The notes: generated from the letters alone by a model not told the origin. A DNA stretch of 64,000 nucleotides from Candidatus Zixiibacteriota bacterium (GCA_003599535.1 QZKQ01000033.1:48837-112836), one strand, 5' to 3'. Positions 50,382 to 61,640 are shown, counted from the first letter of the stretch. A program made the numbers and translations.

Positions 50382-50444
50382 GATGACGTGATTATATTGG
50401 GAGGGCGGAGATTTCCCCGCCCTCCCTTCTGCTTGGAGACGACC

Positions 50445-52502
50445 ATGAGATGGCTGATGATACTATTGGGGTTATTGCCGATCCTGGCCACCGCCCAGGA
50501 TTTCACCTTTGAGTTGCAGCCGGAAGCGTTTCCCGTTGAGATAGAGGGCTGGGAACTCTTCCAACCATGGGCAGGCGGCTTGAACACCACCACGCCGGAA
50601 TGTTGCGACCTGGATGGAGATGGCGATCTGGATTATCTCAGTGGTGGTTCTGGTGATTACTACTACGCCTACTTCACAAATATCGGGACGGAAACAGATC
50701 CGGATTTTCAATATCTCACCCACCAACTGGATTCCCTGCGGGCCATGGATGTGGATCTGGTGGATATGGATCATGACGGGGATCAGGATGCGGTCATGAG
50801 TGGCCTATGCTATCGCAACCTGGGCTCATCCAACCAATACAATTTTGCCGCTGTAGCGGATACCCTCTACGACCCTGCCGGCAACCAACTTATCTGCCCA
50901 CGCACCGCGGCGGTGGACATTGATGCCGATGGGGATTATGACATCTTGGCGGGGCAGATGAATGGCACCCTGCGCTTCTATCAAAATATGGGCTCCCCCG
51001 AAATTTACCTTTTTCAGCGCGGTGTTGGCAATTGGCAGAACATTCAAGTCTGGCCTGATCCCTATCACTACACCGATCCCTGCTTTGCCGATCTGGATGG
51101 CGATGGCGACCTGGACCTGCTGGTGGGGGCGGGGGACGGCACGCTCTCCTACTACCGCAACGACGGCACCCCCCAGAATGCGGCCATGACATTGGTATCC
51201 AGCAGCTACCTGAACCTGGACGTGCAGTTTGACGCCTCGCCGGAACTGGCCGACATCGACTCTGACGGGGATCTGGACTTATTCGTGGGCCGCAGTCCCG
51301 CCGGAGGCCAGGATCGCACCCCGGGCGATGTGTACTTCTTCCGCAATGAAGGTACGACTCAAAACCCCGCTTTCCAGTGGGTCACCACCAACTACCTGAC
51401 CTGGGATAACGGCGCCGAAGCCCGACCCCGGCTGGTGGACATTGACACCGACGGTGATCCTGATCTGTTCTCCCCCATCGGCGGCCGCCTCTTTTTCTAC
51501 CGCAACCAAGGCAGCGCACCATCCCCCCGCTTCGTCTTCGAGACCGACACTTTCCAGAATATCGCGGTCTTTGATAATGAACCCTGGTTTGTGGATCTGG
51601 ACGGGGATGGGGACTACGACCTGTTGGCCGGGGAAAGCGCCTTCCCGCCGCCCGGACCGGGCTTGCACCTGTATCTCAACCAAGGCACGCCCCAGGAACC
51701 AGATTTTGTCCTGTATAGCGATGATCTTCTGCCCGGCTGCTTCAACGATGAAATTGTGCTTAGTCCCTGGACAGCCGATATAGATGCCGATGGAGATCAA
51801 GACCTGTTCGTCAGCACCGGACGATTGTGGTACTTTGAGAATGTCGGCACTTCCGCGCACTTCCGGTTTGAACTGGACAGCAACAACTGGCAGAATATCG
51901 GCGCGCCCAATTACGGGTTGGCCTGGGGCTGCTTCTGGGATATCGATGGGGATCTGGATCTAGATCTGTTCATCAACAGCGAGAATTACGGCTGGTTTCC
52001 CTGGGAGAAGAACCTGACCTTCTACCGCAACACCGGCACGGCGCAGAATGCCGTGATGGTGCTGGAGGACGATGACCTCTTCCCGGAGCTGATGATCTGG
52101 CAGGCAGCGCCCTTTCTCTATGATATGGACTTAGATGGGGATGGGGATCTGTTTGTGGGAGACGAGTGGGGCGGGATCCGTTACTTCGAGAACACCACCG
52201 GGGACACGGCCTACAGCCCCTACACCAAACCCCGCCCGCAGCGGGTGATGGATTTGTCGCTGTCACCCCAACCCGGCAACCCCACCACGGCCATCTCCTT
52301 CCAACTGCCCTACGCTCAGGAGGTGGACTTGGCGGTGTACAATCTCCTGGGGGCAAGGGTGGCGACACTGGCCTCGGGGAGGATGAACGCGGGGAGCTAT
52401 TCCCTGCCGTGGGCCTCCGACGGGTACGCCTCCGGGATCTACTTCGTGCGGCTGACCACCCCCACCGAAACCCTCACCCGGAAGCTGGTGATCCTGCAGT
52501 AA
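50445..52502 (+). CDS. FG-GAP/VCBS repeat protein with T9SS CTD
   Basis: Signal peptide MRWLMILLGLLPILATAQ. At least 10 repeats of D(L/I/M)DGDGD(L/Y/Q)D(L/Y)L-type calcium-binding loops (..DLDGDGDLDLLVGAGDGTLSYYRNDG..). CTD ..PQPGNPTTAISFQLP..VDLAVYNLLGARVATL..SGIYFVRL..KLVILQ. Confidence 0.85.
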   Translation: MRWLMILLGLLPILATAQDFTFELQPEAFPVEIEGWELFQPWAGGLNTTTPECCDLDGDGDLDYLSGGSGDYYYAYFTNIGTETDPDFQYLTHQLDSLRAMDVDLVDMDHDGDQDAVMSGLCYRNLGSSNQYNFAAVADTLYDPAGNQLICPRTAAVDIDADGDYDILAGQMNGTLRFYQNMGSPEIYLFQRGVGNWQNIQVWPDPYHYTDPCFADLDGDGDLDLLVGAGDGTLSYYRNDGTPQNAAMTLVSSSYLNLDVQFDASPELADIDSDGDLDLFVGRSPAGGQDRTPGDVYFFRNEGTTQNPAFQWVTTNYLTWDNGAEARPRLVDIDTDGDPDLFSPIGGRLFFYRNQGSAPSPRFVFETDTFQNIAVFDNEPWFVDLDGDGDYDLLAGESAFPPPGPGLHLYLNQGTPQEPDFVLYSDDLLPGCFNDEIVLSPWTADIDADGDQDLFVSTGRLWYFENVGTSAHFRFELDSNNWQNIGAPNYGLAWGCFWDIDGDLDLDLFINSENYGWFPWEKNLTFYRNTGTAQNAVMVLEDDDLFPELMIWQAAPFLYDMDLDGDGDLFVGDEWGGIRYFENTTGDTAYSPYTKPRPQRVMDLSLSPQPGNPTTAISFQLPYAQEVDLAVYNLLGARVATLASGRMNAGSYSLPWASDGYASGIYFVRLTTPTETLTRKLVILQ

Positions 52503-53273: not shown

Positions 53274-53302
53274 TTGACTTTGGGAGAAAGTTGCTCTATA
53301 TT
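53274..53302 (+). promoter_or_regulatory. sigma70-like promoter (TTGACT-17-TATATT)
   Basis: cTTGACTttgggagaaagttgctcTATATTa, 156 nt before ATG 53459. Near-twin of the promoter at 59897-59925. Confidence 0.55.
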
Positions 53303-53458: not shown

Positions 53459-55141
53459 ATGAAGAAGCTGCCGTTACTGCTGATAAGCCTGGTTATACTG
53501 GCTGCCCTAGTAGCCCCCGCCCCCGCCCAAGCCCAGTGGCCTACCACCCCCCGCGAATTCCTCTCTGTGTCCGCTATTCCCGATACCATGGAGGCCTATC
53601 CTTCCATCTTTTCCCTGGCCGGCGGTAGGACCATAATAACCTTTTTTAAAGATGGGGCGGGGCAATGCTATCAGGTCCTAAGCGCGGACGGTTATACGAT
53701 GTTCACCGTGCCCCCTCTGATCGCCACCACCGCAGCCGGTCCCTATTCTTATTCAACCAAAATGCTTCCCACCCCTGATGGTGGGGTTTACGTGGTGTGG
53801 CAGAATATCTATGGCAGCCCTTTCCCCGGCACCTATGCCCAGCGCCTGGATTCCCTGGGCAACCGCCTGTGGGGAGATGCCGGAGTGTTGATCCATCCCG
53901 CGCATTGGAACGATTTCGACATCTGCCCCGATGGCCAGGGCGGGTTCTTCGCCGCCGTCAACACTCTCCCCTTGACCCCCACGATGGACCTGGCGGGGCA
54001 ACACGTTTCCCTGGCCGGGGAGCTGCTGTGGGGCGCCGCCGGCTTGCCTCTGATCACTTATCTTGAGGCGCAGCAGTTTCCCGCCGTCGCCCCTGACGAG
54101 CAGGGAGGTCTCTATGTCATCTGGGAGGACCGCCGCCCCCCCAACCCTGGTTTCGGCCGGATCTTCAGTCAACGCTTCGACGGGCAAGCCCAACCGTTAT
54201 GGGCACCGGCCACGGGAAGAGAGATCTGGCCCGGCAGCGGCTCCTTCCGCCAGATTTTCCCTGACGGGCAGCACGGCTTCATTGTCTACCACGGCGGGGG
54301 GACCAACTGGAACCACTTGGCTCGCTACAGCCCGGAGGGCCGGCTGCGGTGGAGAAACGATGAGGCTGGGGCGGGCGATCCTGCCAAGATGGTGGCCGGG
54401 GAGCCCGGCTACTTCTACTTCGCTTGGGTGGAGCATTTCCATTGGAAGACGATCTACGGCCAGCGCGTGGACTTGCAGGGACGTTTTCACTGGTCGGGGC
54501 CTTCCGGCGGCGCCCAGGTCATCTCGCCACTAGAAGGGGCCTGGCAGATTATCTACCCGGAGCTGGATTGTTTCTACCGGGACAGCAGTTTCTGGGTGGC
54601 GGAGGCTTACAAGGTATCGCATAGCCCCAGCCTGAGGTTTCCTTTCCGAATCTATGTGCAGGCTCTGGATGCCCAAGCTAATCCCCGCTTTGGTTCCCAA
54701 GGACTATATATCTGTTCCCAAGCCTTATCCAGCCACACCGTGGCGAATCTGAGCGCCGCCACTGATGGATCGGATGGCATTGTGACCGTTTGGGCGGATC
54801 GCTTGATAGGATCGGTATCAGAGGAAGATGTGTTCGCCAGTCATACCAATGCCGACGGAAGCTTCGGCATTCCGCCTGCAATGACTGTCGGCGCTTACTC
54901 TGTGCAAATTAAACGGTCTGATTCAGCTAGCATAGTCTATCAGATCAATGCCCCCGGCATCGTGAGTGTAACTCTCTTCGATCTTCTGGGGAGAAAAATC
55001 AATTCTCTACAAGACGGTCTACAAGCGCCTGGCAATCATTCATTATCTCTAAGTCACCTCTCCTTGCCTTCTGGGGTATATATAGTCACGATCAGAGTGG
55101 ATAACCAGATCATCGCCGGTAAGGTTGCACTGATTAAATAA
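53459..55141 (+). CDS. secreted DGxGG-repeat (beta-propeller-like) protein with T9SS CTD
   Basis: Signal peptide ..APAPAQA/QWPTTP. Repeats PDGGVYVVWQN..YAQRLDSLGNRLWG, PDGQGGFFAA, DEQGGLYVIWEDRR..FSQRFDGQAQPLW, ..YGQRVDLQGRFHW. CTD ..VSVTLFDLLGRKINSL..SGVYIVTIRV..KVALIK. Confidence 0.75.
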   Translation: MKKLPLLLISLVILAALVAPAPAQAQWPTTPREFLSVSAIPDTMEAYPSIFSLAGGRTIITFFKDGAGQCYQVLSADGYTMFTVPPLIATTAAGPYSYSTKMLPTPDGGVYVVWQNIYGSPFPGTYAQRLDSLGNRLWGDAGVLIHPAHWNDFDICPDGQGGFFAAVNTLPLTPTMDLAGQHVSLAGELLWGAAGLPLITYLEAQQFPAVAPDEQGGLYVIWEDRRPPNPGFGRIFSQRFDGQAQPLWAPATGREIWPGSGSFRQIFPDGQHGFIVYHGGGTNWNHLARYSPEGRLRWRNDEAGAGDPAKMVAGEPGYFYFAWVEHFHWKTIYGQRVDLQGRFHWSGPSGGAQVISPLEGAWQIIYPELDCFYRDSSFWVAEAYKVSHSPSLRFPFRIYVQALDAQANPRFGSQGLYICSQALSSHTVANLSAATDGSDGIVTVWADRLIGSVSEEDVFASHTNADGSFGIPPAMTVGAYSVQIKRSDSASIVYQINAPGIVSVTLFDLLGRKINSLQDGLQAPGNHSLSLSHLSLPSGVYIVTIRVDNQIIAGKVALIK

Positions 55142-55180
55142 ATTTTCCATGAACTACCAATTTAATGAAGAGAGGTCATC

Positions 55181-58100
55181 ATGCAGCGCTCAATTCTCGC
55201 TAGTGTGCTACTGGCCGCGCTTTTTACCACCTCCATCCAGGCACAACCGATCCCTTGGGAGTATCACCGCATGCCCGGCGGTTCGGAGGAGGAAACCATC
55301 ATTGTGGATGAAACTCTGGGCCAAGAAGCGGTTAAGGGGCTCTGGATAACCGAGAAACAAGGCGGCATGTATTGGACAGAGTGGAATTCGACTTCAAACA
55401 GCTTCGACCCATGCGATGCGAATAGCGAATTTGATGCCCATTATCCCTGGTGCATGGGCGCTGATGTGCATTCTGTTGGAGGAACATATTCCGGGCTGTA
55501 CACCGTAGCCGCCACCTATAATGCGACTCAATGGTATAAACACTTCACAGGAGAACCATCAAATTGGGGCTACGAAAGTAACTTACCCATTCGTTCCAAC
55601 AATCTTTATCGTTGGCATGACGCTCTGCTGGTCGCCGATGGAAGCGGCAACTTTCTTCCCGATCAATACGTCGTCTCCGCCATGCAGGAATGGTCATCGG
55701 CCGCCGCTTCCCTACGTAAAGGCCTATATGTGTGCCGAACAGGTAATTCAACTCCCGTCCTTCTTACAGATTCGGATTACCACTATGATTACCGTTCGTT
55801 TTATCGTGATTTAGACGATGGGAAAGTCTTTTACACGTTTTACAATGCCACTACGCATCCTACTGACCCAAGCTGCGCGTTTCAGAAGTGGACCATGAGC
55901 GGCACTGGGCCATCACTAACTGGGAGTTCTGTCTCAGACTTTGCTTCCGGTTACGTGCTTAAGGAGGTCGGCGATTTCTATCAGTACATTGAGCCGGACC
56001 CGTCACCGGGAGACAACGATGTCCGTCACCAATTCCTGGAAGCCGAATCCAAACCCACTGGAGGCGATTATACTTGGGATGTCTGGCACCGCGAGAAAAT
56101 CGGTTCGACCGGAACTTACACGACGTGGACGAAAATTTTATCGGATTTAGGCAACATTAATGCAATCAGAGGCACGAAGAATGCGGACATCGTGGCCTAT
56201 CGACCGATCGGTGGAGATTATCATATCTACTTGGGTATCGGTCTGCGCGGATTAGTTTTAGTGAAAGGATTGCCGTCATCGACTTGGTCATATACCCTGC
56301 TGAATGGTTCCATCTCCAATGGTTTTCTGTACAGAAGCGGCACCCGCAGCCTGAACTTGCGGCCGCGATCATGGGTGACAGGTAGCAGCCCACCTGATCA
56401 AGTGATCGTAGGTGGGGTTCACGGCGGCCTCCAAGTCGCCAAAATCAGCCTGGCTGGTCCATCGGTTGATAGCTATGTGTCTTTAGATAACTGGGGAGGA
56501 GGGGTACGCGGAACTGCCCAAAAAGCGGGCTCCTATGTCTTTGATGTGGTAGCAAATGGACCAAATTATTACTTTTTCCATGACGCCTTGGGCGTTTTCA
56601 AGGCCGCTACCAGCTCTGATCCGGATGATTGGGTAACATATACTAGGTTAGGACTAAGCACTACCGACCTTACCGCCCGGACTGATTTCAACATCTGCTT
56701 GAGAAACGGGTGTTTTTCTCCTTTTCCCGGGGAGAGCAATATCCTTTATCTGGGAGGCCAAGACAGACAGTACATTAACGGTTTATCTTCAACCACTCAG
56801 CTGCATCGAGGGGGCATGTGGAAACTGGATATTTCAAGTCCCACAAATTCCCTGACGCGGCCTGCAGATATATCGCTTCTGGTGGAAACTGGAAAACTGT
56901 CTGCCATCGTCACAGAAGATGCAGGGGCTGGGGAACCGATCCTGTATTATGCCTCACCAAGTAACTCGAGGAGTGATGATGAATCGTTAAGGGATGAAGG
57001 CCCCTACAACATTTATCGATACAAGCAGGGAAGTCCTTCTACTGTAGAGGATATTTGGGATACTGACGCAATTGAGTATACGGTTTATCACTGGTTAGCT
57101 GGACCTCTAGGCGAGAACATGCATGCCGGCATTTTTTGCCTGGAGGCGCATCCCACCGTCAAGGGGGTCGTATATGGATTAAGTATGCCGGCACCGCCCC
57201 TGGACTGGGATGATCTTTACCAAGGTACAGAAAACGGTGGTGGTTTGGGATATGTCTACCGGTCGGTCGTTGGTCCTCCTGAAGTTTGGACACCAGAACC
57301 GGTAGTGCAGTGTCATAACGCACCAGATTATTTCCAGAATGTGGTAGACATGGTAGCGGAGTACCCTTTATCACCAGCCGGTGCTGACCATCAGAAGGTG
57401 GATATGCTGGTGGCTTGTGCTGCTTTCGAATTATCGCATAAGAGTGAGGACCCATTCCGCTATGGTGGTCTTTTTAAGGTGCACTATGGCGGCAGTGCCT
57501 GGCAAGTAACTGATGTTACTCCCCCCGTAGGCAGTGATTATAGGCTGTCTCCCGCTTCCGGCGCGTTTTCCCATCCGGCAGTTGTGGGGGTGGATAGTGT
57601 GGCGCTGAGTGCATCCAGTAGAATTTATGTTTGTGTGACTAGCGGCGAGGACAACAGCGTTGTCGGGCTTGATGAATGGACCAGCCATGTGTGGTACCAA
57701 CGGGCCGCCGGTATTGCAAACCTTACGGCATCGGGTTGGAGGAAATTCCCCAGCCCCATCCCCTCCATAGCTAATGGCATAATACCGTATACAAACTCCG
57801 CGGGGGAGACCAAGCCGTTGGTGTCATGGGGCCCTGTCATCGTCAACAAGTACCACAACAATGCCATTGATCTCTTTGTGGGAGGTGTTAGCGGCATCCG
57901 GTACACGATGACCACCGGGCCTGTGGATCAGAGCCAGGCTTGGGAAGGGATGGTGATCCTTGATGATAATGTGACCGTAAATAACGGCGCTACCCTGACC
58001 CTGAATCCTGGCTGCCAGATTGTAGCGAACGGCGACTTCGGCATCACCGTGGATTCGGGCTACATCAAGGTGGCCTACCCCGACAGCGACCGGGTGGTGT

Positions 58101-59785
58101 TCACCGCCGCCGAAGGGGTGCGCTGGGAAGGCCTCACCTTCAAGAACATGCACCCCGACAGCACCCCCACGGTCGAGAACCTGGAGATCCGCAACGCCGA
58201 CGTGGGGATCTACATCGACGACAACGCCACCCACTCGGTGCGCCTGACGGTGCAGAACTGCCTCTTCGACGGCAACAGCACCGCCATCGCCGCCTCCCAG
58301 GCCGACCGCCTCCGCATCGCCAACTGCACCATCCGGAATTGCGTCAAGGACAGCGTCGGCAACGGCGACGGGATCTACCTGTTCAATCCCTCCGCCGGCG
58401 TCAACCATATCGTTGAGAACAACGAGATCTACGGCAACGACGGCTGCGGGGTGCGCCTGTCCAGTTGCCCGGCCACGGTGGTCGTGCGCAACAACGCCAT
58501 CCACGACAACCTGGAGCAGAACAGCGCCGGCTACACCACCTGGGCGGGGGTGTACTGCTACAACAGCTCGCCCAAGGTCCTGACTACCGAAGTCAGCGAA
58601 GCGAACGGCTACCCCCTGGCGGCCTTCAACTCGGCGGCGCCCTACCTGTGCCCCGGCCCGGACTCCACCAACCGCTTCGAGCTGACCATGAGCCCGCCGG
58701 ATACCTACGCCGTGATTTTCGCCGACGGCGGCTTCCCGGTGATGAACAACGCCCACAACAACTTCAGCCACGCTGGCAGCGGCAGCGCCCTCCTAATCCG
58801 GGACGTCACCTCATCGCCGCCGCTGCGCACCGTGAAGTACAACTGGTGGGGCGTCTCTTCCCCGGCCACCGACCAGTACAGCCCCACCAGCATAGATTAC
58901 ACCCCCTGCCTGACCAGCGCCGAAGGGTTCCCCACGGGCCTGCCGGCGCGGGGCATCTACACGGAGGATTCCACCGCCTACGGGCTGCTGGCCGACGCGC
59001 TGGCCGCCGCCGAAGTCGAGAACTACGCCCTGGCCTACCAGCTTCTGGTCACGTTAATGGAGACCTATCCCAATGAAGGCGATGCCGTCTGCCAGGCGCT
59101 GCCCCACCTGTACAACAACGGCCTGCTGGCTTCGATTCCAGCAACGACACTCTATGCTTACTTAGACAACCTCTATCTAGAGAATCCCGGCACCCTGGTG
59201 GGCAAGACCGCCCGCAAGGTGCGCAACGACTGCGCCGTGTACCAGGGCAACTACCAGGCGGCGTTGAACGACTACCAGGCGATCATGGCTGACCCTGAGA
59301 CCCTGGCCGATTCGGTGTATGCGGCCATTGACGCCAATCAGGTCAACCTGATCCTTTCCGGCTCGGGGATGCCGGGCATCATGGCGGTCGGACCGTTGAA
59401 CCCCGGCAGCGCCCAGGAGTGCATGAAGCGGGAAGCACAGCTCATGGCCCTGCTGTACGGCAGCGGCGGCCCGGCCGGCCCGGCCTTGCCCCAGAGCTTC
59501 GCCCTGCACCAGAACTTCCCCAACCCCTTCAACCCTGTGACCACCATCCAGTATGACCTGCCGGAGTTGTCCCAGGTGAAGATCACCATCTATAACATGC
59601 TGGGGCAGAAGGTGGTGACGCTGGCGGACGGGCTGCAGACGGCCGGGTACAAGAAGGTGATGTGGGACTCGCAGCGCGCCGGGGTAGTGCTGGCCAGCGG
59701 GATCTACGTCTATCACTTCGAGGCCACGGGAAAAGTCACAGGCAAGACCTTCACCACAGCCAAGAAGATGTTGCTGCTGAAGTAG
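55181..59785 (+). CDS. giant (1534 aa) secreted protein: unknown N-terminal about 920 aa + parallel beta-helix (PbH1) repeats + TPR-like segment + T9SS CTD
   Basis: Signal peptide MQRSILASVLLAALFTTSIQA. Beta-helix repeats from about 58000 (..LEIRNADVGIYID.., ..LFDGNSTAIAA.., ..NNEIYGNDGCGVRL.., ..NNAIHDN..). CTD ..NFPNPFNPVTTIQYDLPELSQVKITIYNMLGQKVVTL..SGIYVYHFE..KKMLLLK. Confidence 0.8.
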   Translation: MQRSILASVLLAALFTTSIQAQPIPWEYHRMPGGSEEETIIVDETLGQEAVKGLWITEKQGGMYWTEWNSTSNSFDPCDANSEFDAHYPWCMGADVHSVGGTYSGLYTVAATYNATQWYKHFTGEPSNWGYESNLPIRSNNLYRWHDALLVADGSGNFLPDQYVVSAMQEWSSAAASLRKGLYVCRTGNSTPVLLTDSDYHYDYRSFYRDLDDGKVFYTFYNATTHPTDPSCAFQKWTMSGTGPSLTGSSVSDFASGYVLKEVGDFYQYIEPDPSPGDNDVRHQFLEAESKPTGGDYTWDVWHREKIGSTGTYTTWTKILSDLGNINAIRGTKNADIVAYRPIGGDYHIYLGIGLRGLVLVKGLPSSTWSYTLLNGSISNGFLYRSGTRSLNLRPRSWVTGSSPPDQVIVGGVHGGLQVAKISLAGPSVDSYVSLDNWGGGVRGTAQKAGSYVFDVVANGPNYYFFHDALGVFKAATSSDPDDWVTYTRLGLSTTDLTARTDFNICLRNGCFSPFPGESNILYLGGQDRQYINGLSSTTQLHRGGMWKLDISSPTNSLTRPADISLLVETGKLSAIVTEDAGAGEPILYYASPSNSRSDDESLRDEGPYNIYRYKQGSPSTVEDIWDTDAIEYTVYHWLAGPLGENMHAGIFCLEAHPTVKGVVYGLSMPAPPLDWDDLYQGTENGGGLGYVYRSVVGPPEVWTPEPVVQCHNAPDYFQNVVDMVAEYPLSPAGADHQKVDMLVACAAFELSHKSEDPFRYGGLFKVHYGGSAWQVTDVTPPVGSDYRLSPASGAFSHPAVVGVDSVALSASSRIYVCVTSGEDNSVVGLDEWTSHVWYQRAAGIANLTASGWRKFPSPIPSIANGIIPYTNSAGETKPLVSWGPVIVNKYHNNAIDLFVGGVSGIRYTMTTGPVDQSQAWEGMVILDDNVTVNNGATLTLNPGCQIVANGDFGITVDSGYIKVAYPDSDRVVFTAAEGVRWEGLTFKNMHPDSTPTVENLEIRNADVGIYIDDNATHSVRLTVQNCLFDGNSTAIAASQADRLRIANCTIRNCVKDSVGNGDGIYLFNPSAGVNHIVENNEIYGNDGCGVRLSSCPATVVVRNNAIHDNLEQNSAGYTTWAGVYCYNSSPKVLTTEVSEANGYPLAAFNSAAPYLCPGPDSTNRFELTMSPPDTYAVIFADGGFPVMNNAHNNFSHAGSGSALLIRDVTSSPPLRTVKYNWWGVSSPATDQYSPTSIDYTPCLTSAEGFPTGLPARGIYTEDSTAYGLLADALAAAEVENYALAYQLLVTLMETYPNEGDAVCQALPHLYNNGLLASIPATTLYAYLDNLYLENPGTLVGKTARKVRNDCAVYQGNYQAALNDYQAIMADPETLADSVYAAIDANQVNLILSGSGMPGIMAVGPLNPGSAQECMKREAQLMALLYGSGGPAGPALPQSFALHQNFPNPFNPVTTIQYDLPELSQVKITIYNMLGQKVVTLADGLQTAGYKKVMWDSQRAGVVLASGIYVYHFEATGKVTGKTFTTAKKMLLLK

Positions 59786-59817: not shown

Positions 59818-59847
59818 AGGGGCAGGCCGGTGGACCTGCCCCTTTAT
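59818..59847 (+). terminator. rho-independent terminator after the giant gene
   Basis: AGGGGCAGG-ccggtgga-CCTGCCCCT followed by TTAT. Confidence 0.6.
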
Positions 59848-59896: not shown

Positions 59897-59925
59897 TTGA
59901 CTTGGGCAGTTTTTGTCAGTATATT
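59897..59925 (+). promoter_or_regulatory. sigma70-like promoter (TTGACT-17-TATATT)
   Basis: cTTGACTtgggcagtttttgtcagTATATTa, 35 nt before ATG 59961. The TTG start at 59913 in the ORF track lies inside this promoter. Confidence 0.55.
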
Positions 59926-59960
59926 ATTTCCGAAACTCCTACCCTGACATGGAGCCTCCC

Positions 59961-61640
59961 ATGCGCACTTTACTTTTGCTGATAATCCTGACCCTGCTGG
60001 CCACTGTGTGGCTGGCCGCCCCCGCCTTCGCCCAGTGGTCCACCACGCCTTATGGCGACCTGACGATTTACGCCGGTCCGTTTTCGTACAATCAGGTTTG
60101 GTTAATCCCGGATCCCTGCCAACTGGGAAACGGCGATTTTCTGGTGTTTTACCAGGTAGCAACCGCCGGCAACACCTATCATGTCTATCTCCAGTTGATT
60201 GATCCTCAAGGCGCCAAGCAGTGGGGCGGGGACGGCATTCCGATCAGCACGGCGGATGATTCCACCCAGTACGGTGGGCACATGATCCCCGACGGGCAGG
60301 GCGGGGCATTTCTGGTCTGGTGGGTGGCGCGCGAGACCGGACCCGACTACGAGCTGTACGGCCAGCATCTCGGACCCGAGGGCCAATTCCTGTGGGATTC
60401 GGCCGGGGTGTTGTTGGTCACGCCGGGACAGGACATCACCTGGTATGAGATAGACCTGTGCGGAGACGGGGAAGGGGGCTTCTACCTGGCCTGGAGCCAG
60501 GAGGAATCGGCCACCTGCTCCAACTCCGATCCCTACCTGCAGCGCTTCGACAGCCTGGGGCAGGCCCTGTGGCCCCAGCCGGCAGCCCTGTGCCTCTATC
60601 CCGACAGGGACCAGGTGGAGCCCAAAGTGTGTCTGCGGGAACGGGGCGGATGCTTCGCCACCTGGTCGGACATGCGCAGCGGGTGGTACTACACCCAGGC
60701 CCGGCAGAAGGTCACCGCCGAGGGCCAGATCCTGTGGGGTCCCACCGGTATCTATCAGAACGATGCCGGCACCGCCCAAGCGCAGTTGCAGGCCCATCCG
60801 GCGGGGGGATTCCTCTATCTCGACGGCGCCTGTATCTATCATTTCGGGGAGGAGGGGCAGATTCTCTGGGAGGTGGAGATCGGCGGCGATATGCCCGGCG
60901 TCTCTGCCAACCAATTTGCCGTATCGCCCAGCGGACGGCTGTACACCCCCTTCTTTTCGGATTACTTCAACACCGGCGACGACGATTGGGACATCTTTGC
61001 CCAGTGCCTGAACTTCAGCGGGGACCATCTCTGGAGCCCCCGGTATCCGCTGCTGGCGCGGGAACCTGGCGATTGGCAAGTGGAGCCACTCATCGCCCTG
61101 ACACCCGACGGCTTCCTTACCGCCTATGAGCAGCCTCGTCATGGATTGTATCACGGCAACATTTTCTTTCAGATCGCCGACAGCCTGGGGCAGCCGCAGT
61201 TGAACCGGCACGGGGCGCCGCTGCGCATCTCGCACCGCGAGAAGCAGTTGAAGGCTCTGATCCCGGATGGCACAGGCGGGGCCATCGCCTTTTGGGAAAA
61301 AACGGGTTCACCCTATACTTTGCACGCCAACCGCATCCTGTCGGATGGGTCGCTGGGGTATCCGGAACCGGCGCCGGCAGTGAAGCGGGAGCAGCAAGAA
61401 ACCGCTGAGCTGTCGGTGGGTGGCAACTTCGTGCAAGTGAAATTACCCCAAGCCGGGGAAGTGAGGGCGGCGCTATATAATCTCCTGGGGCAACAGGTGA
61501 AGCTGATAATGGACGGTGGGCAGGAAGCGGGCCGGCACCATTATACTATAGACACTCGGGGACTGGCCTCGGGAGTGTATTTCGTAAGGTTGCAATATCA
61601 GGGAGAGGTACGCACCACCAAGATCATTCTGTCGCGGTAG
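59961..61640 (+). CDS. secreted DGxGG-repeat protein with T9SS CTD (paralog of 53459-55141)
   Basis: Signal peptide MRTLLLLIILTLLATVWLAAPAFA/QWSTTP. Repeats PDGQGGAFLVWWVARE..YGQHLGPEGQFLW, GDGEGGFYLAWSQEE..YLQRFDSLGQALW, ERGGCFATWSDMR, PDGTGGAIAFWEK. CTD ..VRAALYNLLGQQVKLI..SGVYFVRLQ..KIILSR. GGAG lies 6 nt before ATG 59961. Confidence 0.75.
   Translation: MRTLLLLIILTLLATVWLAAPAFAQWSTTPYGDLTIYAGPFSYNQVWLIPDPCQLGNGDFLVFYQVATAGNTYHVYLQLIDPQGAKQWGGDGIPISTADDSTQYGGHMIPDGQGGAFLVWWVARETGPDYELYGQHLGPEGQFLWDSAGVLLVTPGQDITWYEIDLCGDGEGGFYLAWSQEESATCSNSDPYLQRFDSLGQALWPQPAALCLYPDRDQVEPKVCLRERGGCFATWSDMRSGWYYTQARQKVTAEGQILWGPTGIYQNDAGTAQAQLQAHPAGGFLYLDGACIYHFGEEGQILWEVEIGGDMPGVSANQFAVSPSGRLYTPFFSDYFNTGDDDWDIFAQCLNFSGDHLWSPRYPLLAREPGDWQVEPLIALTPDGFLTAYEQPRHGLYHGNIFFQIADSLGQPQLNRHGAPLRISHREKQLKALIPDGTGGAIAFWEKTGSPYTLHANRILSDGSLGYPEPAPAVKREQQETAELSVGGNFVQVKLPQAGEVRAALYNLLGQQVKLIMDGGQEAGRHHYTIDTRGLASGVYFVRLQYQGEVRTTKIILSR

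Follow-up and report, generated by a model that had tools for sequence, protein, structure and literature searches.

We analyzed a 64,000-nucleotide (nt) stretch of the genome of an uncultured Candidatus Zixiibacteriota bacterium (GCA_003599535.1, QZKQ01000033.1:48837-112836; hereafter the window, with positions counted from its first letter) and, within it, P0001, a gene encoding a 1534-amino-acid (aa) cargo protein of the type IX secretion system (T9SS). We confirmed a genuine break in base composition inside this gene, far beyond chance. Most of a ~900-aa N-terminal domain (the N-domain) is encoded by DNA of approximately 50% G+C (GC), whereas the C-terminal beta-helix, helical segment, and sorting domain (together the C-module) are encoded in the GC-rich codon usage of the host. 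The initial annotation had read the step as a recent event that fused foreign passenger DNA with a resident module for secretion and anchoring. The architecture is ancient, however, and a GC step within a gene does not have to stem from a new domain fusion; in this case, one stretch of an old gene pair was either exchanged or left behind. We lean toward a mosaic produced by recombination of a GC-rich resident allele with a ~50%-GC allele of the same 2-gene cassette. Recombination had also been the cause put forward initially, and it provides the most economical account.

Codon composition of P0001 and extent of the low-GC tract

The GC minimum of the whole window lies at 55-57 kb, and the per-kb values before 50 kb were mostly 0.60-0.69. 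In 300-nt windows, GC was 0.47-0.53 at 54.8-57.5 kb, rose at 57.5-58.1 kb, and reached 0.65-0.67 at 58.1-59.1 kb, in agreement with the 47-53% (55.5-57.0 kb) followed by 63-67% that had been estimated initially. The change falls almost wholly on third codon positions and is nearly all synonymous: GC at first (~0.5-0.6) and second (~0.45) positions is flat along P0001, whereas GC at third positions (GC3) is 0.43-0.58 until approximately codon 800 and 0.91-0.97 in codons 950-1200. Split by segment, codons 1-820 have a GC3 of 0.50, codons 820-948 one of 0.66, and the remainder one of 0.90-0.95. The maximum-likelihood change-point on third positions was placed at codon 948, nt 58025 (log-likelihood gain 131), with GC3 of 0.52 to its left and 0.90 to its right, close to the switch near 57950-58000 that the initial annotation had proposed. 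Its description of the step as sharp holds for the final stage (58010-58034) and not for the intermediate zone of GC3 0.66 that precedes it (57641-58024). The 801 nt around the main change-point are unique in the genome.

The host baseline comprised 82 windows of 100 codons from 16 housekeeping-type genes and 3 cargo genes of the same 64-kb window, with a mean GC3 of 0.845 (standard deviation, sd, 0.055; minimum 0.65). Against this baseline, the N-terminal windows of P0001 are 4-7 sd low and the C-terminal windows lie within +/-2 sd, with the C-module 5-10 GC3 points over the host mean. The shift between the 2 parts is present in all 18 degenerate amino acids. Relative synonymous codon usage (RSCU) of the 3' part correlated with that of the 16 host genes at r = 0.94-0.95, consistent with the earlier view that the C-terminal part is resident, and that of the 5' part at r = 0.46; compared with genes of relatives, the 5' part gave r = 0.55-0.57. 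Sliding-window GC, GC3, and codon usage thus all returned a strong step (log-likelihood ratio, LLR, 131; RSCU r of 0.46 versus 0.94).

The low-GC3 DNA extends beyond P0001. In the upstream T9SS cargo gene (53459-55141), GC3 is 0.74 up to codon 393 and 0.485 from approximately nt 54638 (LLR 16.7), which bears out the low-GC 3' end described for this gene. The whole tract (54638-58024) spans 3.4 kb between flanks that both have GC3 of at least 0.74. It starts ~540 nt 5' of P0001, inside the upstream gene, taking in the sorting domain of that gene, and ends ~30 codons inside the C-module. Because the tract crosses a gene border with GC3 of at least 0.74 on both sides, its limits are not set by the gene or its domains, and the equation of the tract with the passenger, as first suggested, had to be abandoned. 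Tract GC3 (0.50) is lower even than intergenic GC (0.58).

Mosaic composition is general across the cargo cluster at 50-65 kb. The next cargo gene (62543 to window-equivalent 65458, locus L004) has a second, weaker GC3 step of the same polarity, its low part being N-terminal (0.67 to 0.89 at approximately window-equivalent 64196; LLR 36). GC3 is also patchy, at 0.52-0.92 per 40 codons, in an FG-GAP/VCBS-repeat T9SS cargo gene at 50388-52502. The last gene of the window (62-64 kb) is low in GC as had been claimed, but at 0.52-0.60 it is less extreme than the 45-53% given.

Domain architecture and age of the fusion

P0001 is an old, conserved type of T9SS cargo, made up of a putative signal peptide, the N-domain, a beta-helix of PbH1 repeats, a predicted helical segment, and a C-terminal sorting domain (CTD). 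By inspection, its predicted leader, MQRSILASVLLAALFTTSIQA/QP, has the look of a signal peptide, and homologues have leaders that align with it. The beta-helix was matched by Beta_helix (PF13229) at aa 990-1135 with 59.7 bits (gathering cut-off 25.9), and a NosD-like match covers aa 934-1115. The sorting domain was matched by PF18962 at aa 1446-1520 (27.3 bits; cut-off 27) and by TIGR04183 (32 bits; cut-off 23), and the protein ends at aa 1534. The PbH1 beta-helix and CTD recognized initially were accordingly both recovered with Pfam models (PF13229, PF05048, and PF18962). The helical, TPR-like segment between them had no domain-model match; aa 1201-1440 share 46-52% identity with P0019, L015, and L016.

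The same genome encodes the sortase PorU, the only T9SS component searched for (G000:C6; model NF033707, 747.5 bits; cut-off 420), along with more than 150 paralogues that bear a CTD. With T9SS type A PbH1 cargo carrying the Por_Secre_tail CTD (TIGR04183/PF18962), P0001 shares the beta-helix passenger and the terminal sorting domain, and probably also a leader; unlike the usual cargo of this kind, it adds the ~900-aa N-domain of a rare family and, ahead of the CTD, a conserved segment predicted to be helical.

The N-terminal ~920 aa had been described as lacking any recognizable domain. No Pfam or NCBIfam model indeed matches there, but the region is a conserved family, also represented in G004, a related genome described below. 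In an exhaustive HMMER scan, 33 relatives, 16 of them below 1e-30, were identified among 1.84 billion representatives, the nearest only 38% identical. A word-based search with the N-terminal 920 aa recovered the query alone, and a further search of genome contigs for the family returned no homologue. The kinship of the N-domain with the next cargo gene was not significant (E = 0.11). Distribution is patchy, with the family in 2 of 79 species of the phylum. An AlphaFold (AF2) model built from an 8-row alignment had a modest predicted local distance difference test score (pLDDT 60.5) and strands throughout, and is all-beta. Its best Foldseek matches in the PDB were the tandem or double propellers DDB1, Elp2, and GH74 xyloglucanases, at template modeling (TM) scores of 0.3-0.4, tentatively suggesting a tandem (double) beta-propeller. 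A rare, unnamed all-beta domain family of ~900 aa is thus a by-product of this analysis.

Members of this family recur fused to the module of beta-helix, helical segment, and T9SS CTD. The full layout was found in at least 6 distant homologues (P0019, 1509 aa; P0010, 1569 aa; P0011, 1538 aa; P0008, 1327 aa and incomplete; L015; and L016), as well as at metagenome locus L017 and frameshifted locus L030, and each of the 2 deep clades of the N-domain tree contains it. P0001 and P0019 align over their whole lengths, and the joint is indel-free against 5 homologues. The colinear joint and the shared layout indicate that the fusion of N-domain and C-module is ancient, which contradicts the recent fusion of a foreign passenger that had been proposed. 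At L030 (1-4213), the homologue whose C-module is most like that of P0001 (57%), a +1 frameshift near ..WFEHPYQ.. divides the gene into P0025 and P0039, reflecting either a pseudogene or an assembly error.

The 2 parts do exist separately. Stand-alone N-domain proteins have 890-950 aa, and C-modules with a signal peptide of their own stand alone in, for example, P0042 (634 aa) and C102 of this genome (637 aa, 37% identical to the P0001 C-module). Together with a change-point within ~35 codons of the module boundary, these proteins would suit a de novo fusion, in which a foreign low-GC passenger was joined to a resident stand-alone gene for beta-helix and CTD. We consider such a fusion very unlikely, given the fused layout in both deep clades of the family and its colinear, indel-free joint; moreover, the C-module of P0001 groups with the modules of fused proteins and is only distantly similar to the resident stand-alone copy, and the tract passes the boundary at both ends.

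Origin of the low-GC3 tract

The host is a GC-rich outlier of its family, and the tract has a composition typical of that family. In 8 other sampled family species (7 other genera, G001-G008), GC at the glyA locus is 0.45-0.52 and glyA GC3 is 0.57-0.70, compared with a GC of 0.63 and a glyA GC3 of 0.84 in this genome (G000), whose glyA shares 79-85% amino-acid identity with those of the 8 relatives. A genome so far removed from its relatives in GC (63% versus 45-52%) also offers a good system for studying the pace and force of a shift in base composition. In G004, a secreted 432-aa homologue (L014:1480-2778) matches aa 5-422 of P0001, and the gene immediately 5' of it is a homologue of the upstream gene. 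Each of the 2 G004 genes is ~30% identical to its counterpart in the window, with leaders aligned and the upstream gene colinear, at a GC of 0.51. Since G004 holds the same gene pair, the 2-gene neighborhood is common within the family. The G004 homologue ends after ~420 aa of N-domain, without beta-helix or sorting domain, and 3' of it lies a phosphate-acetyltransferase-like gene, named by inspection of its translation. Elsewhere, the N-domain is found at the GC3 of its host, with 0.56 at L030 against 0.50-0.57 in neighboring genes and a flat profile at L019; low GC3 is therefore not a feature of the domain itself.

In the recombination mosaic that we favor, the genome would have risen to 63% GC (GC3 ~0.85), with the species sampled from all other genera of the family staying at 45-52% GC (glyA locus). 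Two diverged versions of the cassette would then have recombined, one long resident in the GC-rich lineage and the other from a ~50%-GC relative. One crossover would fall at ~54.64 kb, within the upstream gene, and the other at 58.01-58.03 kb, among the first turns of the beta-helix module, and the product would have retained both reading frames and the ancestral domain order. The patchy zone at 57.64-58.02 kb might represent a mismatch-repair mosaic near the crossover, which it resembles, or a second, older event. Host-like codons in the flanks, together with a tract GC3 below intergenic GC, suggest, short of proof, that the low-GC tract was the newcomer. We infer that the tract was imported, and likewise the direction and the recency of the import. 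The event would be of an ordinary kind, most likely recombination, leaving an unusually clean sub-genic mosaic of codon composition.

Mosaic pbp/penA alleles and mosaic surface-protein genes arise by inter-lineage homologous (homeologous) recombination in naturally transformable bacteria. The P0001 tract would likewise be a block from another lineage within a resident gene, with frames and domain order kept, and as in those genes the block runs across gene and domain borders and concerns proteins that are exposed or secreted. Unlike in classical mosaics, the parts of P0001 are told apart by composition only (a 40-point GC3 gap), the partners would be far more diverged and no donor sequence is known, and the host is an uncultured T9SS-bearing bacterium. 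In terms of the amelioration framework of Lawrence and Ochman, the tract shares the lower GC, atypical third-position codons, patchy distribution, and accessory cargo setting of compositionally atypical, horizontally acquired DNA; it differs from this in being sub-genic and homologous to what it replaced, instead of an extra gene or island, with no integrase or intact tRNA.

The genome is a metagenome-assembled genome of 140 contigs, and the tract is composed like the DNA of sister genera, as would suit an assembly chimera in which the contig was threaded through 3.4 kb of the homologous operon of a co-occurring lower-GC relative. We give this explanation only a slim chance. Each join keeps the reading frame and is colinear with homologues, and the 2 join regions are unique in the bin, leaving no repeat to mislead an assembler. 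A de Bruijn chimera needs exact shared k-mers, which alleles with GC3 of 0.5 and 0.95 would hardly have, and 2 such coincidences would be required; further, the transition is a graded zone of ~130 codons and not a clean switch, and bin contamination is 1%. In soil metagenome run X1, the only run with matching fragments, 2 short contigs (151-174 nt) of 92-95% identity matched only 58059-58423, within the beta-helix, and are too sparse to judge the join or an absence of the N-part. A related GC-rich organism is thus present in public data at very low depth.

The initial annotation had proposed comparing the 2 halves separately for differing affinities, and the separate trees did not bring out the conflict expected of a graft. 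The C-half is 46-63% identical to P0019, L015, L016, and L030, and the N-half 22-36% identical to the same proteins. The N-half is nearest to P0007 and P0008, and the N-tree groups the query with both (support 97/96); the best C-tree contains a matching clade of the query, P0008, P0042, and C102 (71/89). A grouping of the query with L030 was rejected in the N-tree (p = 6e-7) but not in the C-tree (p = 0.25), the groups having been named after the trees were seen, and the only groupings rejected were those splitting strongly supported pairs. A claim of proven incongruence through module swapping, prompted by the higher identity of the C-half, was dropped, since the best C-tree already unites the query with P0008, P0042, and C102. 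Rejection of the query plus P0008 in the C-tree by the approximately unbiased (AU) test was set aside as unfair, since P0008 is tied to P0042 and C102. Protein trees neither prove nor exclude exchange between the halves.

Several points weigh against a recombination mosaic. The trees of the 2 halves are compatible with one history and thus do not prove exchange. The searches yielded neither a donor nor a parental allele, the best N-domain relative being 38% identical, and no near-identical DNA was present in the metagenome runs searched. Alleles 40 GC3 points apart would offer very little identity for RecA-type homologous exchange. No mobile-element gene, integrase, or intact tRNA (ARAGORN for tRNA) was identified near the tract. 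Finally, at L018, L030, and L015/L016, GC3 of the beta-helix part is 10-30 points above that of the N-domain; with the beta-helix raised in 3 other lineages, the C-module itself may account for some of the contrast. At L018 (87-4070, encoding P0008, the closest full-length N-domain relative), GC3 goes from 0.57 to 0.80-0.88 exactly over the beta-helix and then to 0.60, and the contig, at only 4.8 kb, provides no host GC3 baseline.

These C-modules of other lineages also fit a heterogeneity that arose in situ, which we rate as unlikely. The operon would have been vertically inherited, and a force raising GC3 would have skipped the hypervariable N-domain tract, which lacked a homologous partner in the population, and brought the shared C-module to 0.95. 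The force would be biased gene conversion linked to recombination, or selection made effective by recombination. The excess of the C-module over the host mean, the compatible trees, the cassette common to G004, and the second step of the same polarity in the next cargo gene are likewise in keeping with this explanation. That recombination and GC content are linked in bacteria has been documented, with the cause debated (Torrance et al. 2024, PMC11879095, citing Lassalle et al. 2015, PMC4450053). In P0001, too, GC3 differs between parts with possibly different recombination histories, but these studies describe gene-to-gene trends of a few percent, against a 40-point step within one gene in P0001. 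The upstream gene, moreover, contains the 5' border, and within the low tract is a sorting domain present in many copies, the opposite of what a force acting through homologous partners predicts. Tract GC3 below intergenic GC also argues against an origin in situ, and a 40-point gap over a border of ~25 nt demands a very sharp and stable recombination boundary. It is quite unlikely that the tract was never imported and that a stable sub-genic boundary separates DNA that recombines within the population (the C-module and core genes, at GC3 0.85-0.95) from non-recombining DNA (the hypervariable N-domain tract) kept near the ancestral ~0.5 of the family. If that were the case, the operon and the step in the next gene would constitute a natural experiment on the driver of a rapid GC3 rise, from the glyA GC3 of 0.57-0.70 in sister genera to ~0.85, in one genus of a ~50%-GC family.

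Features and probable operon layout

Coordinates of P0001, its domains, the low-GC3 tract, and flanking signals in the window
Feature	Position	Strand	Remarks
P0001, 1534-aa T9SS cargo gene	55181..59785	+	Open reading frame verified in sequence
Signal peptide (aa 1-22, by inspection) and N-domain of ~900 aa	55181..57916	+	All-beta; no Pfam/NCBIfam match
Right-handed parallel beta-helix (PbH1 repeats)	57980..58585	+	PF13229 3.3e-16, PF05048 2.4e-07; GC3 0.92-1.00
Helical, TPR-like segment	58943..59440	+	Predicted from sequence only; conserved with C-module homologues
T9SS type A C-terminal sorting domain	59516..59782	+	PF18962 and TIGR04183
Low-GC3 tract, core (GC ~0.50, GC3 ~0.50)	54638..57640	.	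Last ~500 nt of upstream gene, spacer, and P0001 codons 1-820
Intermediate zone, GC3 0.66, patchy runs	57641..58024	.	End of N-domain, poorly conserved linker, and first ~30 codons of C-module
Main GC3 change-point, 2-lnL interval	58010..58034	+	Best estimate nt 58025, within ..TLTLNPGCQIVANG..
Upstream T9SS cargo gene P0004, 560 aa	53459..55141	+	Signal peptide, DGxGG-type repeats, sorting domain at aa 491-556
Sigma-70-like promoter match, TTGACT-17-TATATT	53274..53302	+	Ahead of upstream cargo gene; probable operon start
G+C-rich hairpin, 11-bp stem	59818..59843	listed on minus; palindrome folds on either strand	Directly 3' of P0001 stop

P0001 is probably co-transcribed with the upstream cargo gene as one operon. 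The 2 genes are separated by a 39-nt spacer in which no promoter-like site was found, and the hairpin that follows P0001 is probably the end of the transcription unit. With this spacing, a promoter-like site only before the first gene, and the hairpin after the second, the tract sits in the middle of what is probably a single operon.

The upstream gene has a DGxGG-repeat paralogue at 59913-61640. The pair was compared to locate a parental breakpoint and proved uninformative, the coding DNA being only ~45% identical throughout. Identical promoter-like sites (TTGACT-17-TATATT), at 53274-53302 and 59897-59925, precede the 2 paralogues.

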